IMG/VR virus record: IMGVR_UViG_3300044922_000175
Coordinates: 1 to 64,000 of that record
Direction: 5' to 3' (one strand)
Length of the DNA stretch: 64,000 bases
DNA from: a virus
Below are positions 2,842 through 37,171 of the stretch, one piece after another. The notes beneath the pieces were generated by a model. The model saw only the letters and a program-made list of their open reading frames with translations, was not told the origin of the DNA and made no database searches. The position numbers and the translations under genes were made by a program. Each line of letters begins with the position of its first letter. Position 1 is the stretch's first letter.

Positions 2842-3060
2842 ATGAAACAAACTAGCAAAGATTGGTTACAAGAGATATTAGAAGCTAAAATCGCAAGCTT
2901 TCCAAAACCAAAAAAGGTAGTAGGATGGTATTGCTTATCAACTAAGATTATGGTAAATACTATTGCATTTGCTACACATAGTAAGCCTAACTTTATTAAG
3001 AGATTCTTTATGAGAACTTTATTAGATTTTTACTGGGTTAAAGACACAAACAATGACTGA
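2842..3060 (+). CDS. Hypothetical protein
   Basis: ORF track; A-rich start context. Confidence 0.7.
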   Translation: MKQTSKDWLQEILEAKIASFPKPKKVVGWYCLSTKIMVNTIAFATHSKPNFIKRFFMRTLLDFYWVKDTNND

Positions 3061-3208
3061 AAAAGAAGCTATCATAACCCTTGCCTACTATAATGATTGG
3101 AGGCAAGGGAAAGATGTAGATGCACCTATGGTAAAACCAGAACATGTAACCGAAGCAATTAAGGTTGTAATTCAAAAATGGAAAGAAAGAAACAATGAGC
3201 AACAATAA
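3053..3208 (+). CDS. Small hypothetical protein (51 aa, MTEKEAIITL...RNNEQQ*), below track cutoff
   Basis: Translated by hand; fills the gap and ends in junction repeat J8. Confidence 0.7.
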   Translation: MTEKEAIITLAYYNDWRQGKDVDAPMVKPEHVTEAIKVVIQKWKERNNEQQ

Positions 3209-3470
3209 ACAAACAGATATTAAAGAATTGGCTATTACAGAATACCCATTTGGCAATAGTGAAAGAAATGCTTTTATCAATGGTTATAATAAGGCTAAAG
3301 AATTGCATAAAAATCAGACAATAGAATTACCAAGTGATAAGGATATAGACAAAGAGGCCACGGATTTATTTAGTAAAACTACCAAAATTTATATTTCCAT
3401 TATACAATGCAAAGCATTCAAGCAAGGTGCAAAATGGATGCGTAATAAAATACAAGGAGGTGAGCAATGA
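3195..3470 (+). CDS. Hypothetical early protein, MSNNKQ start
   Basis: ORF track; flanked by J8 and J9. Confidence 0.8.
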   Translation: MSNNKQTDIKELAITEYPFGNSERNAFINGYNKAKELHKNQTIELPSDKDIDKEATDLFSKTTKIYISIIQCKAFKQGAKWMRNKIQGGEQ

Positions 3471-11296: not shown

Positions 11297-11325
11297 TACT
11301 CCCACTATTAATATACAAACCAACT

Positions 11326-11781
11326 ATGAAAGAAACAATAAAAAGTGAAGAAGTAGAGGAAGAAATTGCAAAATTTAAAAAGCAATTTCAGGAAAAACAC
11401 GGCATTAAACTAATTGTATTATCTCCTGCAGATAATATAAATAGGCTTACAATACCGGAAGCAGCTGAAATTATTAATAGACACCTGGTTAAGTATAGTG
11501 CACTGCATTATAAAAAACCGGCTAAAAAGAAATCTAGAAGAGAGGATACAGTTATTCACTCACAGGCATTCTGTAAGATTTGTAAAGATCTTAATTATGG
11601 ACCTAGTGAAATAGCAAGATTTCTTGATAAGGATCATAGTACCGTTATATACTCTATAAGAAAAGCAAGTGACTTATTATCTATAAATGATAACCGCTTC
11701 TTAACTGTATATAATTCTGTTAAACGAGAGATAATAAATAAAATGTATGGAAGAGATATTCAATATTCTGATTCAGAATAA
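11326..11781 (+). CDS. DnaA domain IV (Bac_DnaA_C)-like HTH protein
   Basis: SRREDTVIHSQAF...SEIARFLDKDHSTVIYSIRK resembles the DnaA signature RDHTTVxHA. Confidence 0.75.
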   Translation: MKETIKSEEVEEEIAKFKKQFQEKHGIKLIVLSPADNINRLTIPEAAEIINRHLVKYSALHYKKPAKKKSRREDTVIHSQAFCKICKDLNYGPSEIARFLDKDHSTVIYSIRKASDLLSINDNRFLTVYNSVKREIINKMYGRDIQYSDSE

Positions 11782-25680: not shown

Positions 25681-26157
25681 TTAATCCCAGTGTTTATTAT
25701 ATCTTTCCCAATAGAATTCAGGAATAGTATCTGTATAAGCCTGTACGTAATCACATTTAAATATACTAGTATTCATCTCAGTAAGAGCTATGGTGATAAT
25801 ATCATCATTCTCATAACCCCTATCTAACAATCTCTCTTTTATCCAAGTATAGTTATTACCAGAAAGTACCGCTGCTTCTACTAAGATAATCTTATTATAT
25901 AACACAGGTAATGCAGTGCTCTCTTTCTTAAACTTTAATTCATAGTAATCTCTCTCCTCACCAGGATAAGGAACATCTACTCCAATCATATCCAACATAG
26001 TACCTCCTTCAGAAAGATGGTGTGCGATTTCCATTGCTACCTTAGAAGAATAATCTGGGGACACATTAAGTACCACTGTATCATGGGGATCTACCCTAGG
26101 TAACCTCTTGAGCAAGCCTTGTATGAGCTCATACTCTTTTAAAAAATCTATATACAT
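25681..26157 (-). CDS. Phosphoribosyltransferase-fold protein with atypical PRPP loop
   Basis: KIILVEAAVLSGNNY occupies the place of the VxIVDDxxxTGxT motif. Confidence 0.55.
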   Translation of the reverse strand: MYIDFLKEYELIQGLLKRLPRVDPHDTVVLNVSPDYSSKVAMEIAHHLSEGGTMLDMIGVDVPYPGEERDYYELKFKKESTALPVLYNKIILVEAAVLSGNNYTWIKERLLDRGYENDDIITIALTEMNTSIFKCDYVQAYTDTIPEFYWERYNKHWD

Positions 26158-27507: not shown

Positions 27508-27654
27508 TTATCTACCTTGACCACGATATTTTGATTCAGGTGTAGCTTTTGGTCCAACGGATTTATGAGCCTTACCTTTTTTCTTATTTACATTTTTAGG
27601 TGCAAGGCTTTTAGCTAAACTAGTTCCGCCTTTTTTAGTTTTTGTTGCTGCCAT
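27508..27654 (-). CDS. Small Lys-rich basic protein (48 aa, ...SKYRGQGR*), below track cutoff
   Basis: Translated by hand; fills the gap exactly. Confidence 0.75.
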   Translation of the reverse strand: MAATKTKKGGTSLAKSLAPKNVNKKKGKAHKSVGPKATPESKYRGQGR

Positions 27655-28096
27655 ATATATAATATACAGCATTTTTTAAGGATTGCTGCATAGTCTTGTA
27701 AAAAACCTTTTTGTTATGTGGTATACCAGATACCTCAACAAACATGGCATTCACAAACATTGTTTTAGTAGCAGTACCCATATAGGTTTTGCCATCAATA
27801 ATAACTTTAGTTGTAATAATATATTGTCTCTTTAAAAACTGCAATCCTACAATATTTAGTAATTGTTCCGGCATTGCAATTGATACAATCTCTCCAGATA
27901 CAATACTTCCGGAATCACATAGACTATATTTATCAGAGATTAACTCTTCTAGTGTTGCCTTAGCACCAAACTCTACAGGCCTGTCTAGTAAATACTTTAC
28001 AGTAGCAGTGTTAGAAACAGTGTCAACTTTGTAGCATTGAGCACTCAGAGAAGTCATCATAGTGACTAGGGCAGAAAGTATAAATAGTTTTTTCAT
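27635..28096 (-). CDS. Secreted protein (signal peptide), possibly a CsgG/LptE-like alpha/beta fold
   Basis: MKKLFILSALVTMMTSLSA-Q signal; the fold guess is weak. Confidence 0.7.
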   Translation of the reverse strand: MKKLFILSALVTMMTSLSAQCYKVDTVSNTATVKYLLDRPVEFGAKATLEELISDKYSLCDSGSIVSGEIVSIAMPEQLLNIVGLQFLKRQYIITTKVIIDGKTYMGTATKTMFVNAMFVEVSGIPHNKKVFYKTMQQSLKNAVYYIYGSNKN

Positions 28097-28097
28097 G

Positions 28098-29249
28098 TTA
28101 GTAAGTTACTGCTCCAGAGTATCCAGGAGCTATTAGATATAGATTTAAAGTTCCTCCACTAGTTAAAGTAGAAGTTGAGAAGGTAGTTATTCCTGGATAT
28201 GTAGTACGCACATTACCAGTAGAAGAAGAGATTGTATTGTACTCAGTAGCTGTAAATATTCTTACATCAGAGGCTAACCTCCATCTAGTAAATCTTCCTG
28301 ACTTCCTAGCAGCTACATAGTATTTGTCTGCAATGTTTAATCTTCCGTCATCATTAACATCAAATCTGTGATAAGATAATCCATTGACTGTAGACTTACC
28401 TAAGATAATATTAGATACTGTTTGAATATCTGTGCTAGTGTAAGCCTGAATTCTTGTAGGTACATCTACTTGTATATACCATTGCGTACTTGCAGTAGTG
28501 GTTCTAGAGAAAGCATAGTATCCTGAAGAGTTAGTATAGGCTGTAGCATCTAAAGTCCAAGAAGAAGTTGTAGTAGTTATTGTCCCTACTTCAGAAGATT
28601 GATAAGAATGTGCAGACTGAGAAGGTCTTCTCCAGATAAGATATAATCCATCTCCGCCAGAGTATTCTTGCATGCGTGCAATAAACGTATAAGAAGTACC
28701 TGCGGTTAAACTCACACTGCCGTATTTGTAAGTACCTACTCCTTTACCTCCATAGTATTCAATAATACTTCCTGTGTTTACTAGCCAAAGATCTGATCCA
28801 TCATCAGAAGTCATACCAAAAGAATAGGTGCCAGTTTCTGCAGGGGTAAAAGTAAAACTTACTTCTGTAGCATAGTAATCTCCACTACTAGGAACACTAG
28901 CACCTGCAGAAGTTAATGTACTATAAGTTCCAAAATTTAAAGAAGAGTTACCCGACATTGTGGTTGTTGACCACAAACTAGTATGAGAGTAACTTGTGTT
29001 AAAACACCTATCCATTTCTGATCTCGTAGAAGGATAAGTAGAGTACTGTGTGGTAGCACCAGTTCCATTATGAGTTCTATAAACCTTTACTGTAGTAGAG
29101 TTATTTCCTGTAGTAGTTGTTGTTCTTTTATAAAGCTTCACAGGAACGTTTATAGCAGCACCTCCATTAGCACTGTACATATATCCTGAGTAAGTGAATT
29201 GTGCACTCAGTGGGTTCACAAAGAAGAGTAAAACAATGATCCACCTCAT
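28098..29249 (-). CDS. Secreted PA14-domain plus dockerin-like protein
   Basis: Signal ...PLSA-Q; PA14 signature GTYSFGMTSDDGSDLWL and MQEYSGGDGLYLIW; Ca-loop DVNDDGRLNIAD. Confidence 0.8.
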   Translation of the reverse strand: MRWIIVLLFFVNPLSAQFTYSGYMYSANGGAAINVPVKLYKRTTTTTGNNSTTVKVYRTHNGTGATTQYSTYPSTRSEMDRCFNTSYSHTSLWSTTTMSGNSSLNFGTYSTLTSAGASVPSSGDYYATEVSFTFTPAETGTYSFGMTSDDGSDLWLVNTGSIIEYYGGKGVGTYKYGSVSLTAGTSYTFIARMQEYSGGDGLYLIWRRPSQSAHSYQSSEVGTITTTTSSWTLDATAYTNSSGYYAFSRTTTASTQWYIQVDVPTRIQAYTSTDIQTVSNIILGKSTVNGLSYHRFDVNDDGRLNIADKYYVAARKSGRFTRWRLASDVRIFTATEYNTISSSTGNVRTTYPGITTFSTSTLTSGGTLNLYLIAPGYSGAVTY

Positions 29250-30724
29250 ATCAATAGCTTAGCTCCCATTAAGATTTGAAAGTTTAAGATATCTTGTCCT
29301 GCTACGTAAGTTCCTCCCCCTGTAATACCTAAGCCAAAAGTCTTGGTCATCTTGTAGGTAAAGTTAAAGAAAGGAATTACAATAGGCTTAGCTTCAAATA
29401 AAGACTCTGTATAATATTTAGAGTAGGGAGAATAGATACCAGCCATAATGATTGTAGCATCTATACTTTTAGTAAGTTTTCCCTTGTACATAAATCCACC
29501 TATAGCAATTGTAGAAATCATCTCTTCTCCAAATAATTTACCATAGGTTCCAGCTGCTCCGTAAAGTGCTGTAAAGTTCTTAACTGAGTTTACTCTTACA
29601 AACAAGAGTGTATTTGATATTGATTTAGGCATCAGACTTAGACCATCTGAAACAACACTAATGTGTTTGTTGCCTTTTTTGTTTGCTCCTATCCAAGAAC
29701 GGACACAGGAGATATTACCGATCCTAGCATTAAGCATGTAATCGGCTGAAAACCCAAGAGAAGAAGTACCATCTCCTTTTACTCTTGTAAAGGAGGCAGT
29801 ACCTCTTGCATCTTGTGCTCCATCAGACTTAGTCTGAATACCAACTAAATCACCAGTTACTAATATTGCGGGCTTAGCAACTTCGGCTTTAGCTTTATTG
29901 GCTGCTTTCGCAGTACCACTAGACTGAGTCTTTTGTTGCTCAGTTTTAGTTTCTTCTACTTGTTGGTCTGTGGGTTTTTCTTCTTGTACTTGCGTTTTTT
30001 CTTCGGTTTTACCTCCGCTTCCTGAGCCGCCACCATTTCCGCTACTGTTGGAACTTCCACTACTACTTCCACTGGAACTTCCACTGGAGCCGGAGCCACT
30101 GCTTCCTCCATTACCTTCTCCGCTGCCACCACCACTTCCGGGATTGGGGTTGGATCCGGAGTTATCGGTAGTCCCGCTTTGATTTTCTGGTGGATTTCCT
30201 CCACTGCTGTTGCTTCCAGTTTCTCCTGACGAGCCGCTAGAAGAATTAGAATTACTAGAGCTGTTACTAGTACGATTCCGAGAATTAGTTCTGCTGTCAT
30301 TATTATTTGTTTTATTGGTTGTTCCTACGTTAGTTCCTGAAGAGGTGCTAGATCCTACATCTATATTTACACTACCAACATTTGAAATAGCCCCTAAGTT
30401 CATTACATTACTTACAATGTTTAGAGTCGTATTTGTTGTGGTAGTTGTAGTAGTAGTTACTCCAACTCCTTGACAGGGTGATGTATTTTTATACTTCAAA
30501 TATACACTATTTATCCAATTGTCAAATGTTCCGTCTTGTAATTCTGTATAAGAGAATGTTTTAACCTGTCCATAGTAAGCAATTACTATAGGACTAGACA
30601 TGTCAGCATTAATAAATTTAAGCTCTTGTGTACAGGGATCTGTATAAGAATAGATAAAGCCCTGCCCATTTACGGACAGAGCTATTATCATAAATAGGAT
30701 TAGTATCTTAGTTTTTAAATACAC
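29246..30724 (-). CDS. Secreted protein: Cys-pair N-domain, S/G/N-rich linker, putative C-terminal beta-barrel
   Basis: Signal ...SVNG-Q; alternating hydrophobic strands over the last ~200 aa. Confidence 0.7.
   Translation of the reverse strand: MYLKTKILILFMIIALSVNGQGFIYSYTDPCTQELKFINADMSSPIVIAYYGQVKTFSYTELQDGTFDNWINSVYLKYKNTSPCQGVGVTTTTTTTTNTTLNIVSNVMNLGAISNVGSVNIDVGSSTSSGTNVGTTNKTNNNDSRTNSRNRTSNSSSNSNSSSGSSGETGSNSSGGNPPENQSGTTDNSGSNPNPGSGGGSGEGNGGSSGSGSSGSSSGSSSGSSNSSGNGGGSGSGGKTEEKTQVQEEKPTDQQVEETKTEQQKTQSSGTAKAANKAKAEVAKPAILVTGDLVGIQTKSDGAQDARGTASFTRVKGDGTSSLGFSADYMLNARIGNISCVRSWIGANKKGNKHISVVSDGLSLMPKSISNTLLFVRVNSVKNFTALYGAAGTYGKLFGEEMISTIAIGGFMYKGKLTKSIDATIIMAGIYSPYSKYYTESLFEAKPIVIPFFNFTYKMTKTFGLGITGGGTYVAGQDILNFQILMGAKLLI
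29956..30300 (-). CDS. Nested +1-frame ORF: TM anchor, P/E/V/A-rich stalk, Lys-rich tail (candidate overprinted gene)
   Basis: MTAELILGIVLVTALVILILLAAR...KPKKKRKYKKK; A-rich context with A at -3. Confidence 0.5.
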   Translation of the reverse strand: MTAELILGIVLVTALVILILLAARQEKLEATAVEEIHQKIKAGLPITPDPTPIPEVVVAAEKVMEEAVAPAPVEVPVEVVVEVPTVAEMVAAQEAEVKPKKKRKYKKKNPQTNK

Positions 30725-31406
30725 CTGACTTAATGAGATTTTGAATCACATTAGTGCAAGCAGTTTCAAGAGACTTACGGGTAGCTTTACCCACAGTACT
30801 TTGAGAGAATTTCATGTCATCTAAAGATTTTAAGAATGATTCACCAGTTTTTGTAGATTCACCTTCACCAGATCCAATATAGATCTGACCTGTTTTAGCA
30901 TCCACAAAACGGACCTGTAAACGTATGAAGGTAGTAACCACAACCTTTGACTTAAGGCCATCAACTTGCTCGTCTTCATCAACAGCAAAATCAGCCACAG
31001 TAACGTAAACAAAGTAGTGAGCAGGTTTAATCTTACCTTTTCCATCAATTGGCTCATCAAATACACCTTTTTTAGAGGCTTTAAATTGAGTAACCATTCT
31101 TTCTTTAATCTCTGATTTTTCTTCAGTGAATATAAATCTGTTAGTTTCATCTAAATAATCTAGTACTGACTCAGCAAAACCAAGTCCTACATTCTTTTCC
31201 TGTAAAGCAGGATACAATGAAAGAACTTTTGTCATGTCTACACTAACTACTTGTACTGTTTTCTTAATAGAATCAGTATAGGAAGAAACTGTAGAGATAT
31301 CTTTGCTCTCTACAACTTCCCCATCAGTTGTTGTTTTCATAGAACCGCAACCGGCTAATGTTATAACCACCAAGGCCATAAACTTATTGAACCATTTTTT
31401 TACCAT
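30708..31406 (-). CDS. CsgG/HfaB-family outer-membrane lipoprotein
   Basis: Lipobox LAGC; NRFIFTEE...; IRLQVRFVDAKTGQIYIGSGEG; terminal helix. Confidence 0.75.
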   Translation of the reverse strand: MVKKWFNKFMALVVITLAGCGSMKTTTDGEVVESKDISTVSSYTDSIKKTVQVVSVDMTKVLSLYPALQEKNVGLGFAESVLDYLDETNRFIFTEEKSEIKERMVTQFKASKKGVFDEPIDGKGKIKPAHYFVYVTVADFAVDEDEQVDGLKSKVVVTTFIRLQVRFVDAKTGQIYIGSGEGESTKTGESFLKSLDDMKFSQSTVGKATRKSLETACTNVIQNLIKSGVFKN

Positions 31407-31729
31407 GGATCTTCTTCTTTAGGTTCAGGTTTAGCAGCAGGAGCAGCTGGTGCAGGTGCTTGTTTTTCAATCACACGTTCTTTAATAACTGTGTTTGTAC
31501 CACCACCACTAGATTGCTTCTGTTGGTTTGTGTTGTTGTTCTGTAAGTTAATCACAACAGGTGCACCGGGTGCAGCTTGTTCTGTCTTAGCTTCTTCTTT
31601 AGACTCTTCACCACCGCCTAAGTGGGTTGCAAACCAGGCACCCCCGGCTGTAACAGCTGTAGTAACAGCACCAATAATTGCTTTCTTAGTTGCTGACATT
31701 ACGCTTTCTTCTTGTTGTTCCTCAGACAT
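31400..31729 (-). CDS. Single-TM protein with a disordered Q/N/P/A-rich tail
   Basis: AIIGAVTTAVTAGGAWFA hydrophobic stretch. Confidence 0.75.
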   Translation of the reverse strand: MSEEQQEESVMSATKKAIIGAVTTAVTAGGAWFATHLGGGEESKEEAKTEQAAPGAPVVINLQNNNTNQQKQSSGGGTNTVIKERVIEKQAPAPAAPAAKPEPKEEDPW

Positions 31730-31733
31730 AATA

Positions 31734-31994
31734 TTATTTTTGATTTATAAGTTCTTCTACGTATTTATCTCTTTGCTCCATTAAATGCTCATTACGTTCA
31801 AGCATTCTAGTTCTTTCATCATCAGTAAGTTTAAGGATTAGAGTTTCTTTCTCATCTATCATCTTTTTGTACTCTTCCAACTGACTTTTAAAGTTCATGT
31901 TCTGGTAGTACAAAATGCCCACTAATAATATAATAGTAAAAGACTGTTCTTTCAGCTTCTCAAAAAATGTTTCACCAATAGATCCTTCTTTCAT
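31734..31994 (-). CDS. Single-TM coiled-coil protein
   Basis: FTIILLVGILYY followed by a charged heptad segment. Confidence 0.75.
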   Translation of the reverse strand: MKEGSIGETFFEKLKEQSFTIILLVGILYYQNMNFKSQLEEYKKMIDEKETLILKLTDDERTRMLERNEHLMEQRDKYVEELINQK

Positions 31995-31995
31995 A

Positions 31996-32466
31996 TTATT
32001 TTTCTTGCCCTAATGCTTGTATATAAGAGTCAATGATTCTAGACACGGCTTCAGGTTTTTCATCAGCTTTAAATTTAACTTTAATTTTAGCCATTCCTGA
32101 AGCAGTAGGATTAACTCCTGAGTCTACTTCAATTCCTTTTATATTGTGTTCATATCCCTTCTTCTTAAATAGTCCCAGTAAAGACTTCTTAAGACTAGAT
32201 ACTTCTTTCTCCTCATCCCCAAAAATTAATCTAGCTTCAAACTCTATGTCTAACTCATCTAGTCCAATAGAAGAGTGATCTGCTAGAATATAAAGAGGCA
32301 CTAATAACTCCTTGTCTCCAATCATAAAGTTTGTAACTTTAGGAGTACCATCCTCATTAAAGTAATTTCGTAGAGCATTAATGTGTTGTCTTTCACTAAT
32401 ACTCTGAGAAACCATAGCGGCCTCTAATAGACCGCCAACTAGTTCCTCAATGTTTAATCTTGCCAT
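31996..32466 (-). CDS. DUF2589-family protein (short type)
   Basis: IEELVGGLLEAAMVSQ...VPLYILADHSSIGLDELDIEFE...AKIKVKFK...PEAVSRI. Confidence 0.7.
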   Translation of the reverse strand: MARLNIEELVGGLLEAAMVSQSISERQHINALRNYFNEDGTPKVTNFMIGDKELLVPLYILADHSSIGLDELDIEFEARLIFGDEEKEVSSLKKSLLGLFKKKGYEHNIKGIEVDSGVNPTASGMAKIKVKFKADEKPEAVSRIIDSYIQALGQEK

Positions 32467-32470
32467 ACTA

Positions 32471-32478
32471 CAAAACTA
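32471..32478 (-). promoter_or_regulatory. -7 box TAGTTTTG, 4 nt before ATG 32466
   Basis: CAAAACTA on the + strand in a 26-bp gap. Confidence 0.5.
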
Positions 32479-32492
32479 CTCAAATTTTCTGA

Positions 32493-33083
32493 TTAAGATT
32501 CTTTACTCAATGGAACCAAAGAAGGCTCTAACATTGCTGTAAGGAAGTCAGACAATTTAAGCATACCTTCTGTTGGAGGCAACTGTTCTGCGTGTACTTT
32601 TACTTCGTACTTAGCTGAGTTATCTGTTTGTCTAGTATTCTCACGGTGAGAACTTACGCTACCAGATACTTTAGCATTAAAACTCATACCCCACCATTTG
32701 CCACCTGCAGATACTTCGTAAGCTGTTTGAGAATCATTAGATTCTTTAGACATGTCTGAGGTTTTTACTTCCATAGTAAAGTTAATATCAGCAGAAGTAA
32801 TTGCTAAAGAAGGCAATGGAACTAAAGGAAGCATAGGAACTTTACTGTAAACAGTTTTAAGTTCTTGGATTCCTGTATCTCCATCTGTAAATACACGTTG
32901 CATTTCTACGTCAAGTGAGCGTGCAACATTAGCATCACCTTTTTTCTCAAAAGCTACCTCAGAGATGTATCTCCAAGTTACTTCATTTAATTTAGCTTGT
33001 CCTTTTGCCATTCCGACAATAGGGCTTACAATAAGGTCTTCAATAGGAAGTCCTCTAAATTGATCTGCAATTGAATCTGCCAT
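32493..33083 (-). CDS. DUF2589-family protein
   Basis: IADQFRGLPIEDLI...VPMLPLVPLPSLAITSADINFTMEVK...NSAKYEVKVHAEQLPPTEGMLKL. Confidence 0.8.
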   Translation of the reverse strand: MADSIADQFRGLPIEDLIVSPIVGMAKGQAKLNEVTWRYISEVAFEKKGDANVARSLDVEMQRVFTDGDTGIQELKTVYSKVPMLPLVPLPSLAITSADINFTMEVKTSDMSKESNDSQTAYEVSAGGKWWGMSFNAKVSGSVSSHRENTRQTDNSAKYEVKVHAEQLPPTEGMLKLSDFLTAMLEPSLVPLSKES

Positions 33084-33111
33084 AATTTATATATTAGTTT
33101 GTTTTATTTGG

Positions 33112-33315
33112 TTATTTAAATTTAACTGTACCACTGTACGATTTCTTGACACTTTCTATTTCTTTAATTGCAGAATAAAAGGAAGTTTTTATTTCTTCAT
33201 TTATTGTGAAGTTAAAAATAGTGCTGCAGTGTGGACATCCTGATTTAGGATTCTTTAAGATAAACTTTAGGTCTAAGCCTAAAGGTTCTTTACACATAGG
33301 ACAGGGTATAGCCAT
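33112..33315 (-). CDS. Zinc-ribbon protein
   Basis: CPMC...CPHC. Confidence 0.75.
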   Translation of the reverse strand: MAIPCPMCKEPLGLDLKFILKNPKSGCPHCSTIFNFTINEEIKTSFYSAIKEIESVKKSYSGTVKFK

Positions 33316-33317
33316 AA

Positions 33318-33668
33318 TTAAGAGTTATTTGGGTTAGATAATGATTCTCCGTCTTCTTCATCTACCTTTTGAATTAACATTTTGTCACGGTCTTCTGAGT
33401 TAAACCAATAGTCAACTACCTTGTTTAAGTTACCTACAAAGGCACCAAAAAGAATAAGTAACATTTCTTTCCAGTTCTCTTGGATTTCTATTCCAAAAAA
33501 TACTGCAGAGTTAATACCAAGGATAATAAAGAAGAACAAACCTAATACAATTGCTGTAATCTTCCAACGGTTGGCTTGCATTTGTTGTAGCATGTAATAG
33601 AATCTGTTCTTAGGATCTACTACTACTGGTTCTGCTTGGTTAAGACCAAGTGCTTTTTTAATGTTCAT
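33318..33668 (-). CDS. Two-TM membrane protein (holin-like)
   Basis: Two hydrophobic helices, FGAFVGNLNKVVDYWF. Confidence 0.7.
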   Translation of the reverse strand: MNIKKALGLNQAEPVVVDPKNRFYYMLQQMQANRWKITAIVLGLFFFIILGINSAVFFGIEIQENWKEMLLILFGAFVGNLNKVVDYWFNSEDRDKMLIQKVDEEDGESLSNPNNS

Positions 33669-35557
33669 TTGTTTACGACAATTTTAGAATGTAATACTTC
33701 ATGCTCTGTTACTACAGTAAGTACATATACACCATCAGATAACTGACTTAGATTAGCACTATACTTATACTTACCTGCAGGCATCTTTTCATTTAGAATA
33801 GTCTGTATGCGTCTTCCTACCTCATCAGAGATAGCTACATCTACATCAGCATCTTGTTTGATCTGGAATTGGATCTGTACTGCTCCATCTGTAGGATTAG
33901 GGAATACGATAATAGAGTTAAGATCATTTAAAGAAACAACTCCTTTGTTAATCCTACGTACTTCTATGATACCCATAGCAGGAGTAATGTTCATATCTTT
34001 AGACTTAGCATCACCTACGTATTTAGCACCAGTCCATAAAGCTGCAGTAGCCCAAGAGTCTTGTGGTTTCTTAGCGATAAACTGAAGAGTAAATACTTGC
34101 TCTCCATCATTTAAGAGGTTTTCATTAGTTAAGTCAGCACCTCCCCAAGATACTATACCGTTAGAAGGGTTTAAGTAAGAAGTCCACTTCATCATCTTCT
34201 CGGTGTTCTCTACTTTCTTAAACTCTAAGTAAGCAGTATCATAACGTAAGTCTAATTGAAGTGCACCTAATTGCTTGCCATCTGTAAGAACTTTAACAGG
34301 AACGTTAACTAAGTTACCTTCATCTACAGTTACTTTAGGCATGTTAATCTCAATAGTTTCTGCAGGGAAATCATAAGACACAGTCTCATCAATGATGTAA
34401 CGCTTAGCATTAGCTGGGTTAGTAATCTTGATAGGAGTCAAACGAGCCATCTTAAATCCTGTAGAGTTTGCATCTCCTTTAACAGCTACGTAGTAAGTGA
34501 TAGAATCACGACCATCAATAGTGTAGTTAAAGTTGTTAATCGTAGAGTAAGTAGAAGTTAGGTTAGTAGCTGATCCGTTAATTGAATTGTATTCAGCAAC
34601 TGTGAAGAACATTACATCTTTCTTAGAGTTAGGCCAAGCTGAGAATCTACCTGCTAAACGTCCGTACACAGAGTATACGTCAGCAATAGTAATAGAACCA
34701 TCAGTGTTGTTTACATCCATTGTGTAGTAGTCAAATCCAGAAGGAGTGTATTGAGCTAAGATAGATTGGTTAATCTTTTGTGCATCTGCAGTAGAGAATA
34801 CGTTACCAGGAGTCATTGTATCTCCCTTAACTACCATACGTACATCCCAGTAAGTAGTATCTAAGAATTTACGGAATACTACAACACCACTAGAGTTAGT
34901 TGCTTTAGCTTCTACCTGAGTCCAAGATCCACTAGGAGCTTTCTTCTCTAAAGACACCCACAAGTTCTTAGCGTCAGAACCTGTTACGTTTTTAAACTTA
35001 GCAGCAAATCTTAATACTTTTTGGTTAAAACGACCACCATAAGAGTAAACTACCAAAGTAGTATCGTTACCCCAGTTAGTAGCAGCTTTGTTAGCAAATG
35101 ATTTAACACCTGCAACTTTCAAAGTTTTAATAGAATCTAAAGTATTCCATGTTGAGCTTCCTGCGTGCGTGAAGGTTAAATCAAAGGTAGCTCCGTTAGA
35201 ATAGTTGTAAGTAGAGCTAGATCCAGTGTAAGCCAAAGTTACTGTCAAGAATCCTTGTGAGTTACTATCTACGTACTGAAGATACTGATCTGTAGTAGAA
35301 ATCTTCAAAGAAGGAACTACACCAGTGAATGCAGTGTTATCGTAGAATACACGGAATTGCATACCAGTGATCTTCTCTGAAGTAGAAGTGTTATAGAAAT
35401 GTAAAGGTGCTACTGTCTGTCCTGCAGTAGTAGTAGCAACTTGGTAACCAGAATCAATCACAACCCAGTGACCTGTACCTGGAGATGTGCTAGAACTTTG
35501 CGCAAACATTACTGTTGCAAACAAAGTAGTGACAAGTGAAGAGATAAATTTTTTCAT
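33665..35557 (-). CDS. T9SS substrate: signal peptide, cohesin, beta-sandwich, dockerin, cohesin, type A CTD
   Basis: CTD IIVFPNPT...SDEVGRRI...LSDGVYVLTV...SKIVVNK; cohesin VNVPVKV...GALQLDLRYD...FTLQF; Ca-loop DVNNTDGSITIAD. Confidence 0.85.
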   Translation of the reverse strand: MKKFISSLVTTLFATVMFAQSSSTSPGTGHWVVIDSGYQVATTTAGQTVAPLHFYNTSTSEKITGMQFRVFYDNTAFTGVVPSLKISTTDQYLQYVDSNSQGFLTVTLAYTGSSSTYNYSNGATFDLTFTHAGSSTWNTLDSIKTLKVAGVKSFANKAATNWGNDTTLVVYSYGGRFNQKVLRFAAKFKNVTGSDAKNLWVSLEKKAPSGSWTQVEAKATNSSGVVVFRKFLDTTYWDVRMVVKGDTMTPGNVFSTADAQKINQSILAQYTPSGFDYYTMDVNNTDGSITIADVYSVYGRLAGRFSAWPNSKKDVMFFTVAEYNSINGSATNLTSTYSTINNFNYTIDGRDSITYYVAVKGDANSTGFKMARLTPIKITNPANAKRYIIDETVSYDFPAETIEINMPKVTVDEGNLVNVPVKVLTDGKQLGALQLDLRYDTAYLEFKKVENTEKMMKWTSYLNPSNGIVSWGGADLTNENLLNDGEQVFTLQFIAKKPQDSWATAALWTGAKYVGDAKSKDMNITPAMGIIEVRRINKGVVSLNDLNSIIVFPNPTDGAVQIQFQIKQDADVDVAISDEVGRRIQTILNEKMPAGKYKYSANLSQLSDGVYVLTVVTEHEVLHSKIVVNK

Positions 35558-36003
35558 TTTTTTATGTTATTTACAGCGTGTTCTATGAGCCAAGGCTCAG
35601 GATTTTCTAAGTTTTTTATAAAGCTAAGTTCATACATGTAGCAAAATGTCTCCTCTTTTTCCGGAATCATTTCTATACCTTTCTTTGCTATATAAAGATG
35701 TAAGCTTTCATGTACTAGAACTACAGCAATGTTATTTATAGAGTTTAGTTTAAGATCGGCTACAGCTATGTAGATGTGACCTTTACCATTCTCTAGTTCA
35801 CAAGAAGAGTAGGGACTTATCATAAAAGATACCTGAGAACAATTTGTATCAAGCATCTTGTACTTATCTATGTCTACCTTCTTTATCAGTTGAATTGCTG
35901 AATCAACTTTTAAATCCCAACCGTCCCCAGCTTTGTCAATTTTGATTTGAGCAAAACAAGGGACGGCTAAGAATAAAAAGAGGTTAATTACTAACCCCTT
36001 CAT
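35554..36003 (-). CDS. Secreted HExxH zinc-peptidase-like protein
   Basis: Signal ...PCFA-Q; LVHESLHL...EKEETFC. Confidence 0.65.
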   Translation of the reverse strand: MKGLVINLFLFLAVPCFAQIKIDKAGDGWDLKVDSAIQLIKKVDIDKYKMLDTNCSQVSFMISPYSSCELENGKGHIYIAVADLKLNSINNIAVVLVHESLHLYIAKKGIEMIPEKEETFCYMYELSFIKNLENPEPWLIEHAVNNIKK

Positions 36004-36006
36004 AAA

Positions 36007-36594
36007 TTATTTAATGTCTTTAGACTCAATAAGAGTGTAGGTAAAAGAGTTACCACCCAATGTAGCAGCTTTCTTACAGATTGCCATGAATGCATCAAAG
36101 TCAGCAGACTTCTTGAACACTTGGCATCCTTCAGACCAGTTCTCCACGTAAGTAGAATCTGCACCAGCTTTATGAATGTTAATACCGAAGATGCCTTCTT
36201 GTATCTTAGATTCATCATAAGTCATGTCTTTGTTAGCATCACGGTAAACCTTTACGTTTGCCTTTTGCTTTAACGCTTCATACTTACCTTGGTGTAATCC
36301 TACATGGTGTGAACCACTGTATTGACCAGGCACTAAGCGTGCAACACCAGCAGCATTGTGAAATTCTTTAACACCCTTAGTTCCGGGATCTGTAGTAGCA
36401 GGCCAGATTTTAAATTTCCATTCTCCATTTTCTTTGTAAGAAAGAGTTAAATGATCATCAAATACATTAGTTACTTTGTTACCAGTAGAAGAATTACGTA
36501 CACCAATGATATTTACATTGAAGTCACCATTCTCAAAATACTTGTAACCTTTGGCTTTCATTGCAGCCTCAATTTGTTCTCTAGTATAGCTCAT
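36007..36594 (-). CDS. Putative endolysin, L,D-transpeptidase (YkuD)-like
   Basis: FGINIHKAG...NWSEGCQVF (H...SxGC catalytic pattern); no signal peptide; adjacent to a holin-like gene. Confidence 0.7.
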   Translation of the reverse strand: MSYTREQIEAAMKAKGYKYFENGDFNVNIIGVRNSSTGNKVTNVFDDHLTLSYKENGEWKFKIWPATTDPGTKGVKEFHNAAGVARLVPGQYSGSHHVGLHQGKYEALKQKANVKVYRDANKDMTYDESKIQEGIFGINIHKAGADSTYVENWSEGCQVFKKSADFDAFMAICKKAATLGGNSFTYTLIESKDIK

Positions 36595-36631: not shown

Positions 36632-36880
36632 TTACTCCTCAGTGTTAGCTTCTGGCTTCTTCATGATTTTCTCAACAGAAGTCAAACCTAAACAACCAAA
36701 TGCAAGCAATGCTACAGCGTCCACTAAAGGAACAGAAGGAGCAAAGTGTGCTTCAGTAAAAGAGTTAGCATACAAAGTAGCGCAAAGAGTAATAGTGCAG
36801 ACTAAGCCACACAAGCGCTTCATGGAAACGGAGCCTTTTTCATCTTTGAAAAGACCACCAATAAAGTTTAATAGTTTCAT
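36632..36880 (-). CDS. Putative holin (2 TM)
   Basis: GSVSMKRLCGLVC... followed by two TM segments and a charged tail; directly upstream of the lysin. Confidence 0.6.
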   Translation of the reverse strand: MKLLNFIGGLFKDEKGSVSMKRLCGLVCTITLCATLYANSFTEAHFAPSVPLVDAVALLAFGCLGLTSVEKIMKKPEANTEE

Positions 36881-37142: not shown

Positions 37143-37171
37143 AATGTAGGGGGAGAAATCCCCCATTATTT
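37141..37171. terminator. Bidirectional terminator between convergent genes
   Basis: GGGGGA-GAAA-TCCCCC with A/T tracts on both sides. Confidence 0.75.

Follow-up and report, generated by a model that had tools for sequence, protein, structure and literature searches.

A block of twelve genes in the virus record IMGVR_UViG_3300044922_000175 (IMG/VR) is the subject of this analysis. The record has 125,939 bp (CheckV completeness 100%), and its first 64 kb, positions 1 to 64,000, constitute the stretch studied here, which we call the window. We found that the twelve genes are two nested accessory cassettes. The outer one, module 2, is a syntenic unit made up of genes A, B, C, H, I, J, K and L, and the inner one, module 1, consists of genes D, E, F and G. 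What module 2 encodes seems to be a means of displaying exchangeable lectins on the surface of the infected cell, by way of the general secretory pathway (Sec) and the type IX secretion system (T9SS) of the host. To this reading, taken as a whole, we give an even chance.

The twelve open reading frames (ORFs) are designated by a letter followed by the length of the product in amino acids (aa): A149, B630, C116, D67, E196, F156, G86, H109, I232, J492, K383 and L153. All of them lie on the minus strand, from position 36003 down to 27635, and at the junctions they either overlap by 4-17 nt or leave gaps of at most 28 nt. An earlier note on this DNA, made from the letters and the ORFs, had described twelve packed genes of one strand behind a holin and an endolysin, and its coordinates, strand and packing proved correct. 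So did its count of six products with a signal peptide or a lipobox (A, B, J, K, L and I) and three membrane proteins (C, G and H).

Exported and membrane proteins of module 2

B630 (33665-35557) has the make-up of an exported scaffold, in which a signal peptide is followed by a beta-sandwich plus dockerin-like region (residues 184-340), a cohesin domain (403-524) and a type A C-terminal domain (CTD) of the kind recognized by the T9SS (551-628 of 630). The cohesin matched PF00963 with an E-value of 8e-13 and 49.2 bits (cut-off 24.1). The CTD matched both Por_Secre_tail (PF18962; 1.9e-10, 41.3 bits against a cut-off of 27) and the type A sorting domain TIGR04183 (35.9 bits against 23), and both assignments made for B in the earlier note are therefore upheld. 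In the B family, followed down to 20% identity, Por_Secre_tail was present in 14 of 14 homologs and Cohesin in 12. Another cohesin-like stretch, in the N-terminal part of B, is weak (E between 0.001 and 0.1) and might be a second cohesin. The signal peptide shows a positive n-region, a hydrophobic core and a site (...FAQ/S, with a slash for the predicted cut) that exposes glutamine. From these features we infer that B would be sent to the cell surface by the T9SS of the host.

Signal peptides, the lipobox and membrane helices were read by inspection of the sequence. Sec signal peptides of the signal peptidase I (SPI) type are borne by A, B, J, K and L, with glutamine exposed at all five predicted cleavage sites (...AQ/ or ...G/Q). 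I has an LAGC lipobox, the sole one on the minus strand within 25-37.3 kb, and membrane helices are found in C, G and H. Glutamine at SPI sites is known as the Q-rule of Bacteroidetes (PMC5837995), and the glutamine-exposing sites of this phage appear to be an adaptation to the export pathway of its host phylum. Taking these sites together with the T9SS CTD of B and with the Flavobacterium host of vB_FspM_immuto, a cultured phage carrying module 2 that is discussed below, we infer a host among the Bacteroidota. The phage is of a virulent type, and its host is probably a freshwater, Flavobacteriia-like bacterium.

The presumed partner of B is K383 (28098-29249), an exported lectin that has a signal peptide, a PA14 domain and a C-terminal dockerin-like module, and no CTD. 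PA14, which had been proposed for K from the start, scored above its cut-off (PF07691; 6.1e-6, 26.5 bits against 24), and in the K homolog of contig L232 it reached 2.5e-10. Residues 184-340 of B and 189-354 of K are paralogous modules (33% identity, E 2e-16). Both contain a single canonical EF-hand-like calcium loop, DxNxDG...D, followed by a helix (residues 281-293 in B and about 300-312 in K), and the loop residues D281, N283 and D293 are invariant in the B family. As no Dockerin_1 match was obtained for B in the Pfam scan and the match of K was sub-threshold (see below), 'dockerin-like' seems a fair name for these modules, and 'dockerin' would go beyond the evidence. We also considered K as a type B T9SS cargo and rejected this idea, since NCBIfam gave no type B CTD match for K and thus no profile support.

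Homologs of K have three parts in common, namely the signal peptide, a motif of about 25 residues at the N-terminus and, at the other end, the dockerin-like module. They are 265 to 990 aa long, and the middle part may be PA14, a C-type lectin with an EPN motif, a C-type lectin combined with a ConA-like Laminin_G_3 domain, Ig_7 combined with a C-type lectin, GEVED, or an unassigned sequence. In relatives whose I protein is 93-94% identical to that of the window, a C-type lectin stands in the place of PA14. The lectin of K is a swappable cargo, and its swapping resembles that of receptor-binding modules under diversifying pressure.

The next group of proteins comprises H, I and J, whose genes overlap (H and I by 7 nt, I and J by 17 nt), which suggests coupled synthesis. 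H109 (31400-31729) is a bitopic inner-membrane protein with a periplasmic tail that is rich in Pro, Ala, Glu and Lys, is probably extended and ends in DPW. I232 (30708-31406) is an exported protein and, judging by its lipobox, a lipoprotein in this phage. The AlphaFold2 (AF2) model of I has a mean predicted local distance difference test score (pLDDT) of 72, with values of about 80-90 across most of residues 45-232. Foldseek searches with this model returned CsgG, FlgT and PelC at E about 2e-6 (CsgG 2.9e-6). In VIA-align the best match was CsgG (Z 12.7, root-mean-square deviation 3.1, 156 aa), followed by CT253, Cj1090c, FlgT-N and PelC (9.8) at Z of about 10 and by LptE at 9.0. According to the model, then, I has the CsgG fold, and its pore function is putative. 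The name 'CsgG' attached to close homologs of I in two Joint Genome Institute (JGI) records is an automatic label, and domain scans of the twelve genes and their neighbours gave no curli-family match.

J492 (29246-30724) consists of a signal peptide, an N-domain (22-78), a helix (87-117), a disordered linker and a barrel (286-490). In the AF2 model the N-domain is small and disulfide-containing, with two conserved Cys, the linker comprises about 165 disordered residues rich in S, G and N, and the barrel is of the outer-membrane type, with 12 strands and a pLDDT of about 90. The putative beta-barrel of the earlier note is therefore well supported by modelling. VIA-align placed J closest to EspP (Z 18.5), CymA (18.2) and NalP (18.0), followed by FapF and KdgM (14.8 each), and Foldseek matched it to KdgM, NanC and FapF. 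The alignments to EspP and NalP begin at model residues 83-87, that is, at the helix. The barrel family of J has 64 representatives among 1.84 billion clustered proteins and comes almost entirely from uncultivated sources; the barrel is always C-terminal, and the region before it varies in length. None of the Pfam families, Autotransporter (PF03797) and PorP/SprF (PF11751) included, was matched by J or by 44 members of its family. The idea that J is a PorP/SprF-type partner of the T9SS was accordingly dropped, as PF11751 gave no profile support in J or in these relatives.

Three small proteins complete the module. A149 (35554-36003) is exported, with a signal peptide and a zincin-like HExxH; its motifs H98-E99-x-x-H102 and E117-E118 are invariant in 11 homologs. 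The nearest ESM Atlas clusters of A are all viral hypotheticals, and weak zincin leads pointed to DUF6647 and eCIS_core. C116 (33318-33668) is a small membrane protein with two helices, and its gene varies in position, lying before or after that of H. L153 (27635-28096), a small exported protein with a signal peptide and two Cys, had no family match in Pfam, PHROG or NCBIfam.

Synteny of module 2 and the case for surface display

IMG/VR was searched with the endolysin, E196 and I232 as anchors, and all genes were mapped back by tblastn; gene counts refer to 40 loci that were anchored on I and flanked by 7 kb or more on either side. Homologs of I occur in at least 528 viral stretches, and module 2 is abundant and apparently comes from freshwater. 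B, H and L were found in all 40 loci, J in 37, A in 35, C in 33 and K in 27, the last figure being an under-count owing to the variable middle of K. The endolysin gene was nearby in 18 of the loci, and D, E and F were present in 3 each. Protein identities among the loci range from 22 to 100%, and the module may lie upstream or downstream of the endolysin gene or be inverted relative to it; the B/K and H/I/J genes were never separated in the loci examined. The earlier note had suggested a synteny search, and most of the genes do co-occur in many phage genomes; neither of the outcomes it had named as damaging, a lack of co-occurrence or a chimeric insert, was encountered.

That the block is accessory can be seen in the record IMGVR_UViG_3300032296_001209 (locus L002), which shares its holin, endolysin, dCTP deaminase and PhoH with the window at 96-100% identity (endolysin 98%, PhoH 100%) and has none of the twelve genes. 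In their place, at L002:10588-15733, the plus strand carries four small genes (92, 141, 103 and 295 aa), all but the last of which have products with hydrophobic N-termini, and three further genes (613, 183 and 208 aa) lie on the opposite strand. As L002 does without all twelve genes, the block must be dispensable for the basic cycle of the virus, lysis included. The interval between the endolysin and dCTP deaminase genes is a replacement hot spot.

Such a hot spot would suit the assumption that the genes are independent morons, which gathered at a permissive insertion site and have no joint function. Module 1 was clearly inserted independently, and the middle of K and the position of C are variable. 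Against this assumption, B, H, I and L stay together in all 40 loci and are joined by J in 37, even where identity falls to about 25-45%, and they do so in an unrelated myovirus too; the gene overlaps suggest translational coupling, and B and K share a paralogous module of an interaction type. We therefore consider a chance gathering of morons unlikely.

The myovirus in question, Flavobacterium phage vB_FspM_immuto (160 kb; host Flavobacterium sp. LMO8), represents the one group of cultured phages in which module 2 was found. Its gp013 corresponds to K, gp014 and gp015 together to B, gp016 to H, gp017 to I, gp018 to J and gp019 to L. A C-type lectin (3e-15) is combined with the same C-terminal module in gp013, and Cohesin with Por_Secre_tail in gp015. 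The immuto module is located among ribonucleotide reductase, nuclease and queuosine genes, with the endolysin gene about 8 kb away, and such a location favours a role while the infected cell is alive over one in lysis.

Outside recognized viruses, the I profile was run against 185,579 prokaryote species, each represented by a single genome, and gave seven loci, all on contigs of metagenome-assembled genomes (MAGs). Several of these contigs hold further genes from this region of the phage, and the taxa to which some of them have been binned are implausible, in unrelated phyla, at 43-93% identity. Within reach of the pattern search, module 2 thus appears to be restricted to phages. Homologs of module 1 or module 2 were also present on viral contigs of 270-334 kb (L099, L123, L234-L236 and others), indicating that jumbo-sized phages carry the modules as well.

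One might still suspect that the block is a mis-assembled piece of host chromosome or that its products are virion components. The cohesin, the CTD, PA14 and the CsgG fold are indeed typical of bacterial proteins, and seven MAG bins hold homologs. However, the same genes are found in hundreds of viral contigs of IMG/VR, in the same order wherever loci were inspected closely, and in a cultured phage, and the block is therefore not a chimeric insert. Its GC content is continuous with that of the flanks, and the MAG contigs hold other genes of the phage region and are assigned to unrelated phyla. As for the virion, its assembly takes place in the cytoplasm, with which Sec signal peptides are not compatible, and none of the twelve proteins matched a PHROG structural family, in agreement with the earlier description of envelope-targeted, non-virion proteins. 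Both explanations were rejected on these grounds, and the probability that we leave to them is very low.

The mechanism that we favour, surface display, would work as follows. Sec would export A, B, I, J, K and L, and the T9SS of the host would carry B to the cell surface through its CTD. The cohesin or cohesins of B would hold the dockerin-like module of K, and perhaps those of further copies of B, in a calcium-dependent manner. Since K has no CTD, it would have to cross the T9SS translocon bound to B or else use an outer-membrane complex made by the phage. H (as an inner-membrane anchor with an extended tail), I (as a ring-type periplasmic or outer-membrane protein) and J (as the barrel) might form such an envelope complex, which would either give the CTD-less K, L and A a passage through the outer membrane or anchor the display complex. 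Once displayed, the lectin might bind surface glycans of the host population and mask receptors, leading to superinfection exclusion, with the progeny shielded from debris. Alternatively, it might stick infected cells to neighbouring cells or to particles. Glycan binding at the cell surface, serving masking and exclusion or adhesion, is the likeliest biological role.

On the other hand, a number of observations weigh against surface display. With Dockerin_1 (PF00404) K scored 17.0 bits, under the Pfam cut-off of 22.9, and having a single canonical calcium loop it does not bear out the dockerin that the earlier note had seen in it. Two tandem calcium-binding F-hand loops are absent from both B and K, the upstream repeat being devoid of the loop consensus. 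For I there was no match in Pfam (E <=0.1), in NCBIfam or among the sequences of the PDB, and a profile of 19 homologs of I, run against the PDB, found no CsgG chain at E <=10 and returned chance-level matches only. In many relatives of I at 41-50% identity an SPI-type signal replaces the lipobox, and the model of I has a single long hairpin (131-169) with an acidic tip that is not lipid-facing; the two transmembrane hairpins with which CsgG forms its nonameric 36-strand pore are not evident. Of the 'CsgG-like pore' in the earlier note the fold was right, and the pore was overstated, given the missing Pfam CsgG match and the unconserved lipobox. In J, a disordered stretch of about 165 residues keeps the helix apart from strand 1, unlike in true autotransporters. 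The B gene of immuto is split by a frame change (L162:6868-8692), and gp015, the half with the cohesin and the CTD, has no signal peptide. This split may reflect a genuine frameshift, programmed frameshifting or decay; the coordinates of the neighbouring I homolog are alike in all four immuto records. Finally, module 2 of the window belongs to one transcription unit with the lysis genes, which is compatible with a lysis-related role.

Could module 2, then, be lysis machinery, with H, I and J as spanin-like or outer-membrane-disrupting proteins and A as a lysis-associated peptidase? It follows the holin and endolysin genes in a single unit and, as noted, has the endolysin nearby in not quite half of the loci; the H and I genes overlap as i-spanin and o-spanin genes do, and the lipobox scan of 25-37.3 kb revealed no canonical small o-spanin lipoprotein in the region. 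Adjacency and overlap would suit H and I as a two-component spanin, but the composition of the tail, the size of I and the lipobox do not. The tail of H is a low-complexity sequence rich in Pro and Ala and not a coiled coil, and I, whose lipobox is unconserved, folds into a domain of about 190 aa, unlike o-spanins. In addition, L002 has near-identical lysis genes without the module, the immuto module sits apart from the endolysin amid genes of nucleotide metabolism, and no lysis role is evident for lectins, a cohesin or a T9SS CTD. A function in lysis seems to us rather improbable.

It is also conceivable that J is an autotransporter-like surface protein or pore complete in itself and helped by I, in the way that LptD is helped by LptE or PelB by PelC, and that B and K are a separate T9SS adhesin pair, linked to it genetically only. 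J would in this case alter the permeability of the outer membrane or export a polymer or a peptide. The EspP and NalP translocators are the nearest to J, with the helix aligned, the fold family of I (CsgG, PelC, LptE) typically partners or forms outer-membrane channels, and the I and J genes share their 17-nt overlap. Moreover, large phages commonly encode outer-membrane proteins (preprint 10.64898/2026.10.24.761521). However, the domain scans revealed in the module neither a curlin- or Fap-type cargo gene nor a gene of polysaccharide synthesis, and B/K do not occur apart from H/I/J in the loci examined, which leaves this division of the module a small chance. Of all these readings, lectin display by way of Sec and the T9SS seems the best.

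The DUF2589 cassette and the genes around the block

Module 1 lies between C and H. D67 (33112-33315) is a zinc ribbon, CPxC...CPxC, collinear with zinc-ribbon genes of bacterial DUF2589 cassettes. E196 (32493-33083) and F156 (31996-32466) are DUF2589 paralogs (PF11655; 2.5e-30 and 106.3 bits for E, 2.9e-13 and 50.9 bits for F, cut-off 23), both of which are devoid of a signal peptide, and F is always found beside E. G86 (31734-31994), a bitopic membrane protein with a coiled-coil tail, arrived together with D-E-F in this lineage. The scores confirm the DUF2589 pair named in the earlier note, in which its placement in an 'envelope operon' had adjacency alone behind it.

The view of all twelve genes as one system did not survive the comparison with other genomes. 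D-E-F are missing in the close relatives L003-L006, L009 and L010, where C directly abuts H, and G is absent along with them in L003-L006; G adjoins D-E-F in L089, L107, L116 and L158. Conversely, D-E-F occur without module 2 in about 80 other viral contigs (50-100% identity), and such genes are also found in bacterial chromosomes. Module 1 is an independent mobile cassette, inserted later between C and H, and a phage copy of a widespread one.

E196 is conserved at 70-100% identity across 144 viral stretches of IMG/VR, and 1003 proteins were found for it. Module 1 may be set inside lysis cassettes, in the order holin-endolysin-D-E-F-G in L089 and holin-lysozyme-G-D-E-F-x-endolysin in L158, or beside capsid- or fibre-like genes, as in L100 and L142. 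Among 401 sampled Bacteroidota genomes, 18 have DUF2589, mostly as 2-3 tandem paralogs. In the five bacterial loci inspected (L260-L264), a zinc-ribbon gene of 66-107 aa lies within the DUF2589 array, collinear with D67, and a gene for a bitopic membrane protein with a coiled coil often follows the bacterial array. An archaeal DUF2589 cluster, AF0414-AF0417 of Archaeoglobus fulgidus, has been mentioned in the literature (PMC3949148). The likeness of these bacterial and archaeal clusters to module 1 lies in the 2-3 tandem paralogs and the CPxC...CPxC gene of 66-107 aa. They differ from it in that D-E-F are phage-borne, extremely conserved and often set in lysis cassettes. A tblastn search of 50,697 phage records with E196 gave no match, sequence searches with E and F against the PDB gave chance-level matches only, and the clusters obtained for E from the ESM Atlas were all of DUF2589. 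In the literature we found no functional study of DUF2589/PF11655, the mentions being listings in expression tables. Module 1 probably acts at the inner membrane.

In one of the bacterial loci (L261:1-6200, genome G326) the DUF2589 and zinc-ribbon cassette adjoins tyrosine-recombinase-like and DUF262-like genes, according to N-terminal sequences that were read. These neighbours hint at a mobile or defence island.

With regard to the surroundings of the block, a strong terminator-like hairpin lies at 37149-37164 (minus strand; 6 pairs, 5 of them G-C, then a T run), just after a gene of 1762 aa. Terminator-like sites are enriched (22 seen against 6.5 expected), and this one marks the start of a separate transcription unit, from the holin-like gene to a 161-aa gene at 25681. 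The unit is gap-free and contains, in order, the holin-like gene, the endolysin gene, the twelve genes, and genes for a small basic protein, dCTP deaminase, PhoH and the 161-aa protein. The holin-like membrane protein (82 aa; 36632-36880, minus strand) has one hydrophobic segment and is a neighbour of the endolysin in relatives, at 78-99% identity. The putative endolysin (195 aa; 36007-36594, minus strand) matched phrog_3000 (3.7e-39) and the endolysin family phrog_33083 (1.4e-12), and at least 593 related viral stretches were found in IMG/VR. A very basic ORF of 54 aa (27508-27672, minus strand; net charge +13) overlaps the end of L153 and is kept in L002 as a 46-aa protein, which suggests that its true start is probably an internal ATG.

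Another frame of the J linker contains a nested ORF of 114 aa (29956-30300, minus strand), with a membrane helix and a basic tail of the KPKKKRKYK type. It is open, with the N-terminal helix and the tail conserved, in L006 (14719-15063) and L011 (16281-16610). L002 has a stand-alone homolog (11317-11628; 41% over 53 aa, E 1.6e-5), and L089 contains a look-alike (2930-3217), both within lysis cassettes. As other frames of the low-complexity linker are open too, openness alone is a weak proof, and we regard this ORF as a candidate overprinted gene outside module 2 proper.

In the rest of the window, the plus strand carries replication genes, including one for a family A DNA polymerase (phrog_1252, 9.5e-137), and a long minus-strand block consists of large genes that are probably structural, with giant proteins of 4566, 1762, 1194 and 853 aa. 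The polymerase is at most 37% identical to those of cultured phages, and the region had no megablast match among 50,697 phage records, which indicates that the phage as a whole has no close cultured relative. A scan for sigma-70 promoters returned 40 sites against 43 expected by chance, with a model ill-suited to Bacteroidota promoters. PADLOC, run on ten of the proteins, gave no hit, and thus no known defence family is involved.

Known systems and what module 2 would mean

B resembles T9SS type A cargo, such as gingipains and RemA of F. johnsoniae, in combining a Sec signal with a type A sorting domain. RemA-like T9SS cargo carries lectin functions. B differs from such cargo in being phage-encoded and in leaving the lectin to another protein, K, which has no CTD and would need a cohesin/dockerin-like pair for its recruitment. 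The above-threshold cohesin of B and the EF-hand-like loop and helix of B and K recall cellulosome scaffoldins and the cohesin-dockerin pairs known outside cellulosomes. In contrast to these, the module has no glycoside hydrolases, its dockerin is sub-threshold with one calcium loop, the scaffold itself bears a dockerin-like module, and B would be anchored via the T9SS and not via S-layer homology (SLH) domains or sortase.

The predicted fold of I superposes on CsgG over nearly the whole chain, which places I alongside CsgG, PelC, LptE, FlgT-N, Cj1090c and CT253. As in the PelC/PelB and LptE/LptD pairs, I is (in this phage) a predicted lipoprotein next to an outer-membrane barrel, with which its gene overlaps. 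Unlike CsgG, it comes without a sequence-level match, curli genes, a conserved lipobox or evident transmembrane hairpins. J shares with type Va autotransporters (EspP, NalP) a C-terminal 12-strand barrel and a helix aligned with their luminal helix, and with FapF a long disordered linker. It departs from type Va autotransporters in its linker of about 165 residues, in a 'passenger' of only about 60 aa and in the missing Autotransporter Pfam match.

Most of the envelope remodelling by phages that is known so far is the work of single proteins, such as exclusion lipoproteins and outer-membrane proteins. Module 2 belongs with the phage-encoded modules that act on the host envelope, and it is similar to T5 Llp, Cor, Lom and Bor of lambda, and the sortase B and outer-membrane proteins of huge phages in that phage proteins are placed in or on the envelope of the host. 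It differs from all of these as a syntenic unit of 7-8 genes that exploits the T9SS and has a cohesin/dockerin-like pair, swappable lectins and a protein of the CsgG fold. A 2026 preprint on huge phages describes 1,603 outer-membrane barrels of phages as well as a phage sortase B whose substrates are candidates for display on the surface, and it makes no mention of CsgG, cohesin, dockerin, lectin or type IX secretion (10.64898/2026.10.24.761521). Our literature searches found no published phage-borne T9SS cargo, cohesin/dockerin-type pair or module of this kind, in line with the earlier note, which knew of no such characterised phage system. If the display machine is confirmed, module 2 would be categorically new.

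Sortase-based display in huge phages has itself been proposed only recently. If our reading is true, this would be the first phage found to exploit the T9SS of Bacteroidota and the first with a phage-borne cohesin/dockerin-type pair, with lectin domains that near-identical phages exchange in the manner of receptor-binding proteins. The cultured pair that carries the module, vB_FspM_immuto and Flavobacterium sp. LMO8, makes the idea testable now. The orphan DUF2589 family, for its part, gains a defined cassette of paralogs and a zinc ribbon, often accompanied by a bitopic membrane protein.

The broadest form of our proposal is tentative, and we hold it to be possible but on balance doubtful. 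It says that phages of Flavobacteriia and other Bacteroidota own a dedicated, horizontally exchanged system for reprogramming the cell surface, with a cohesin scaffold planted by the T9SS, a trans-envelope complex (inner-membrane anchor, CsgG-fold ring and autotransporter-like barrel) and rapidly swapped lectins, and that, separately, the DUF2589 cassette is a new membrane-acting system of conflict or lysis control in phages, bacteria and archaea. Should it be true, such phages would possess a virus-encoded analogue of a cellulosome-style display machine, whose lectins would decide to what infected cells adhere or which receptors are hidden.

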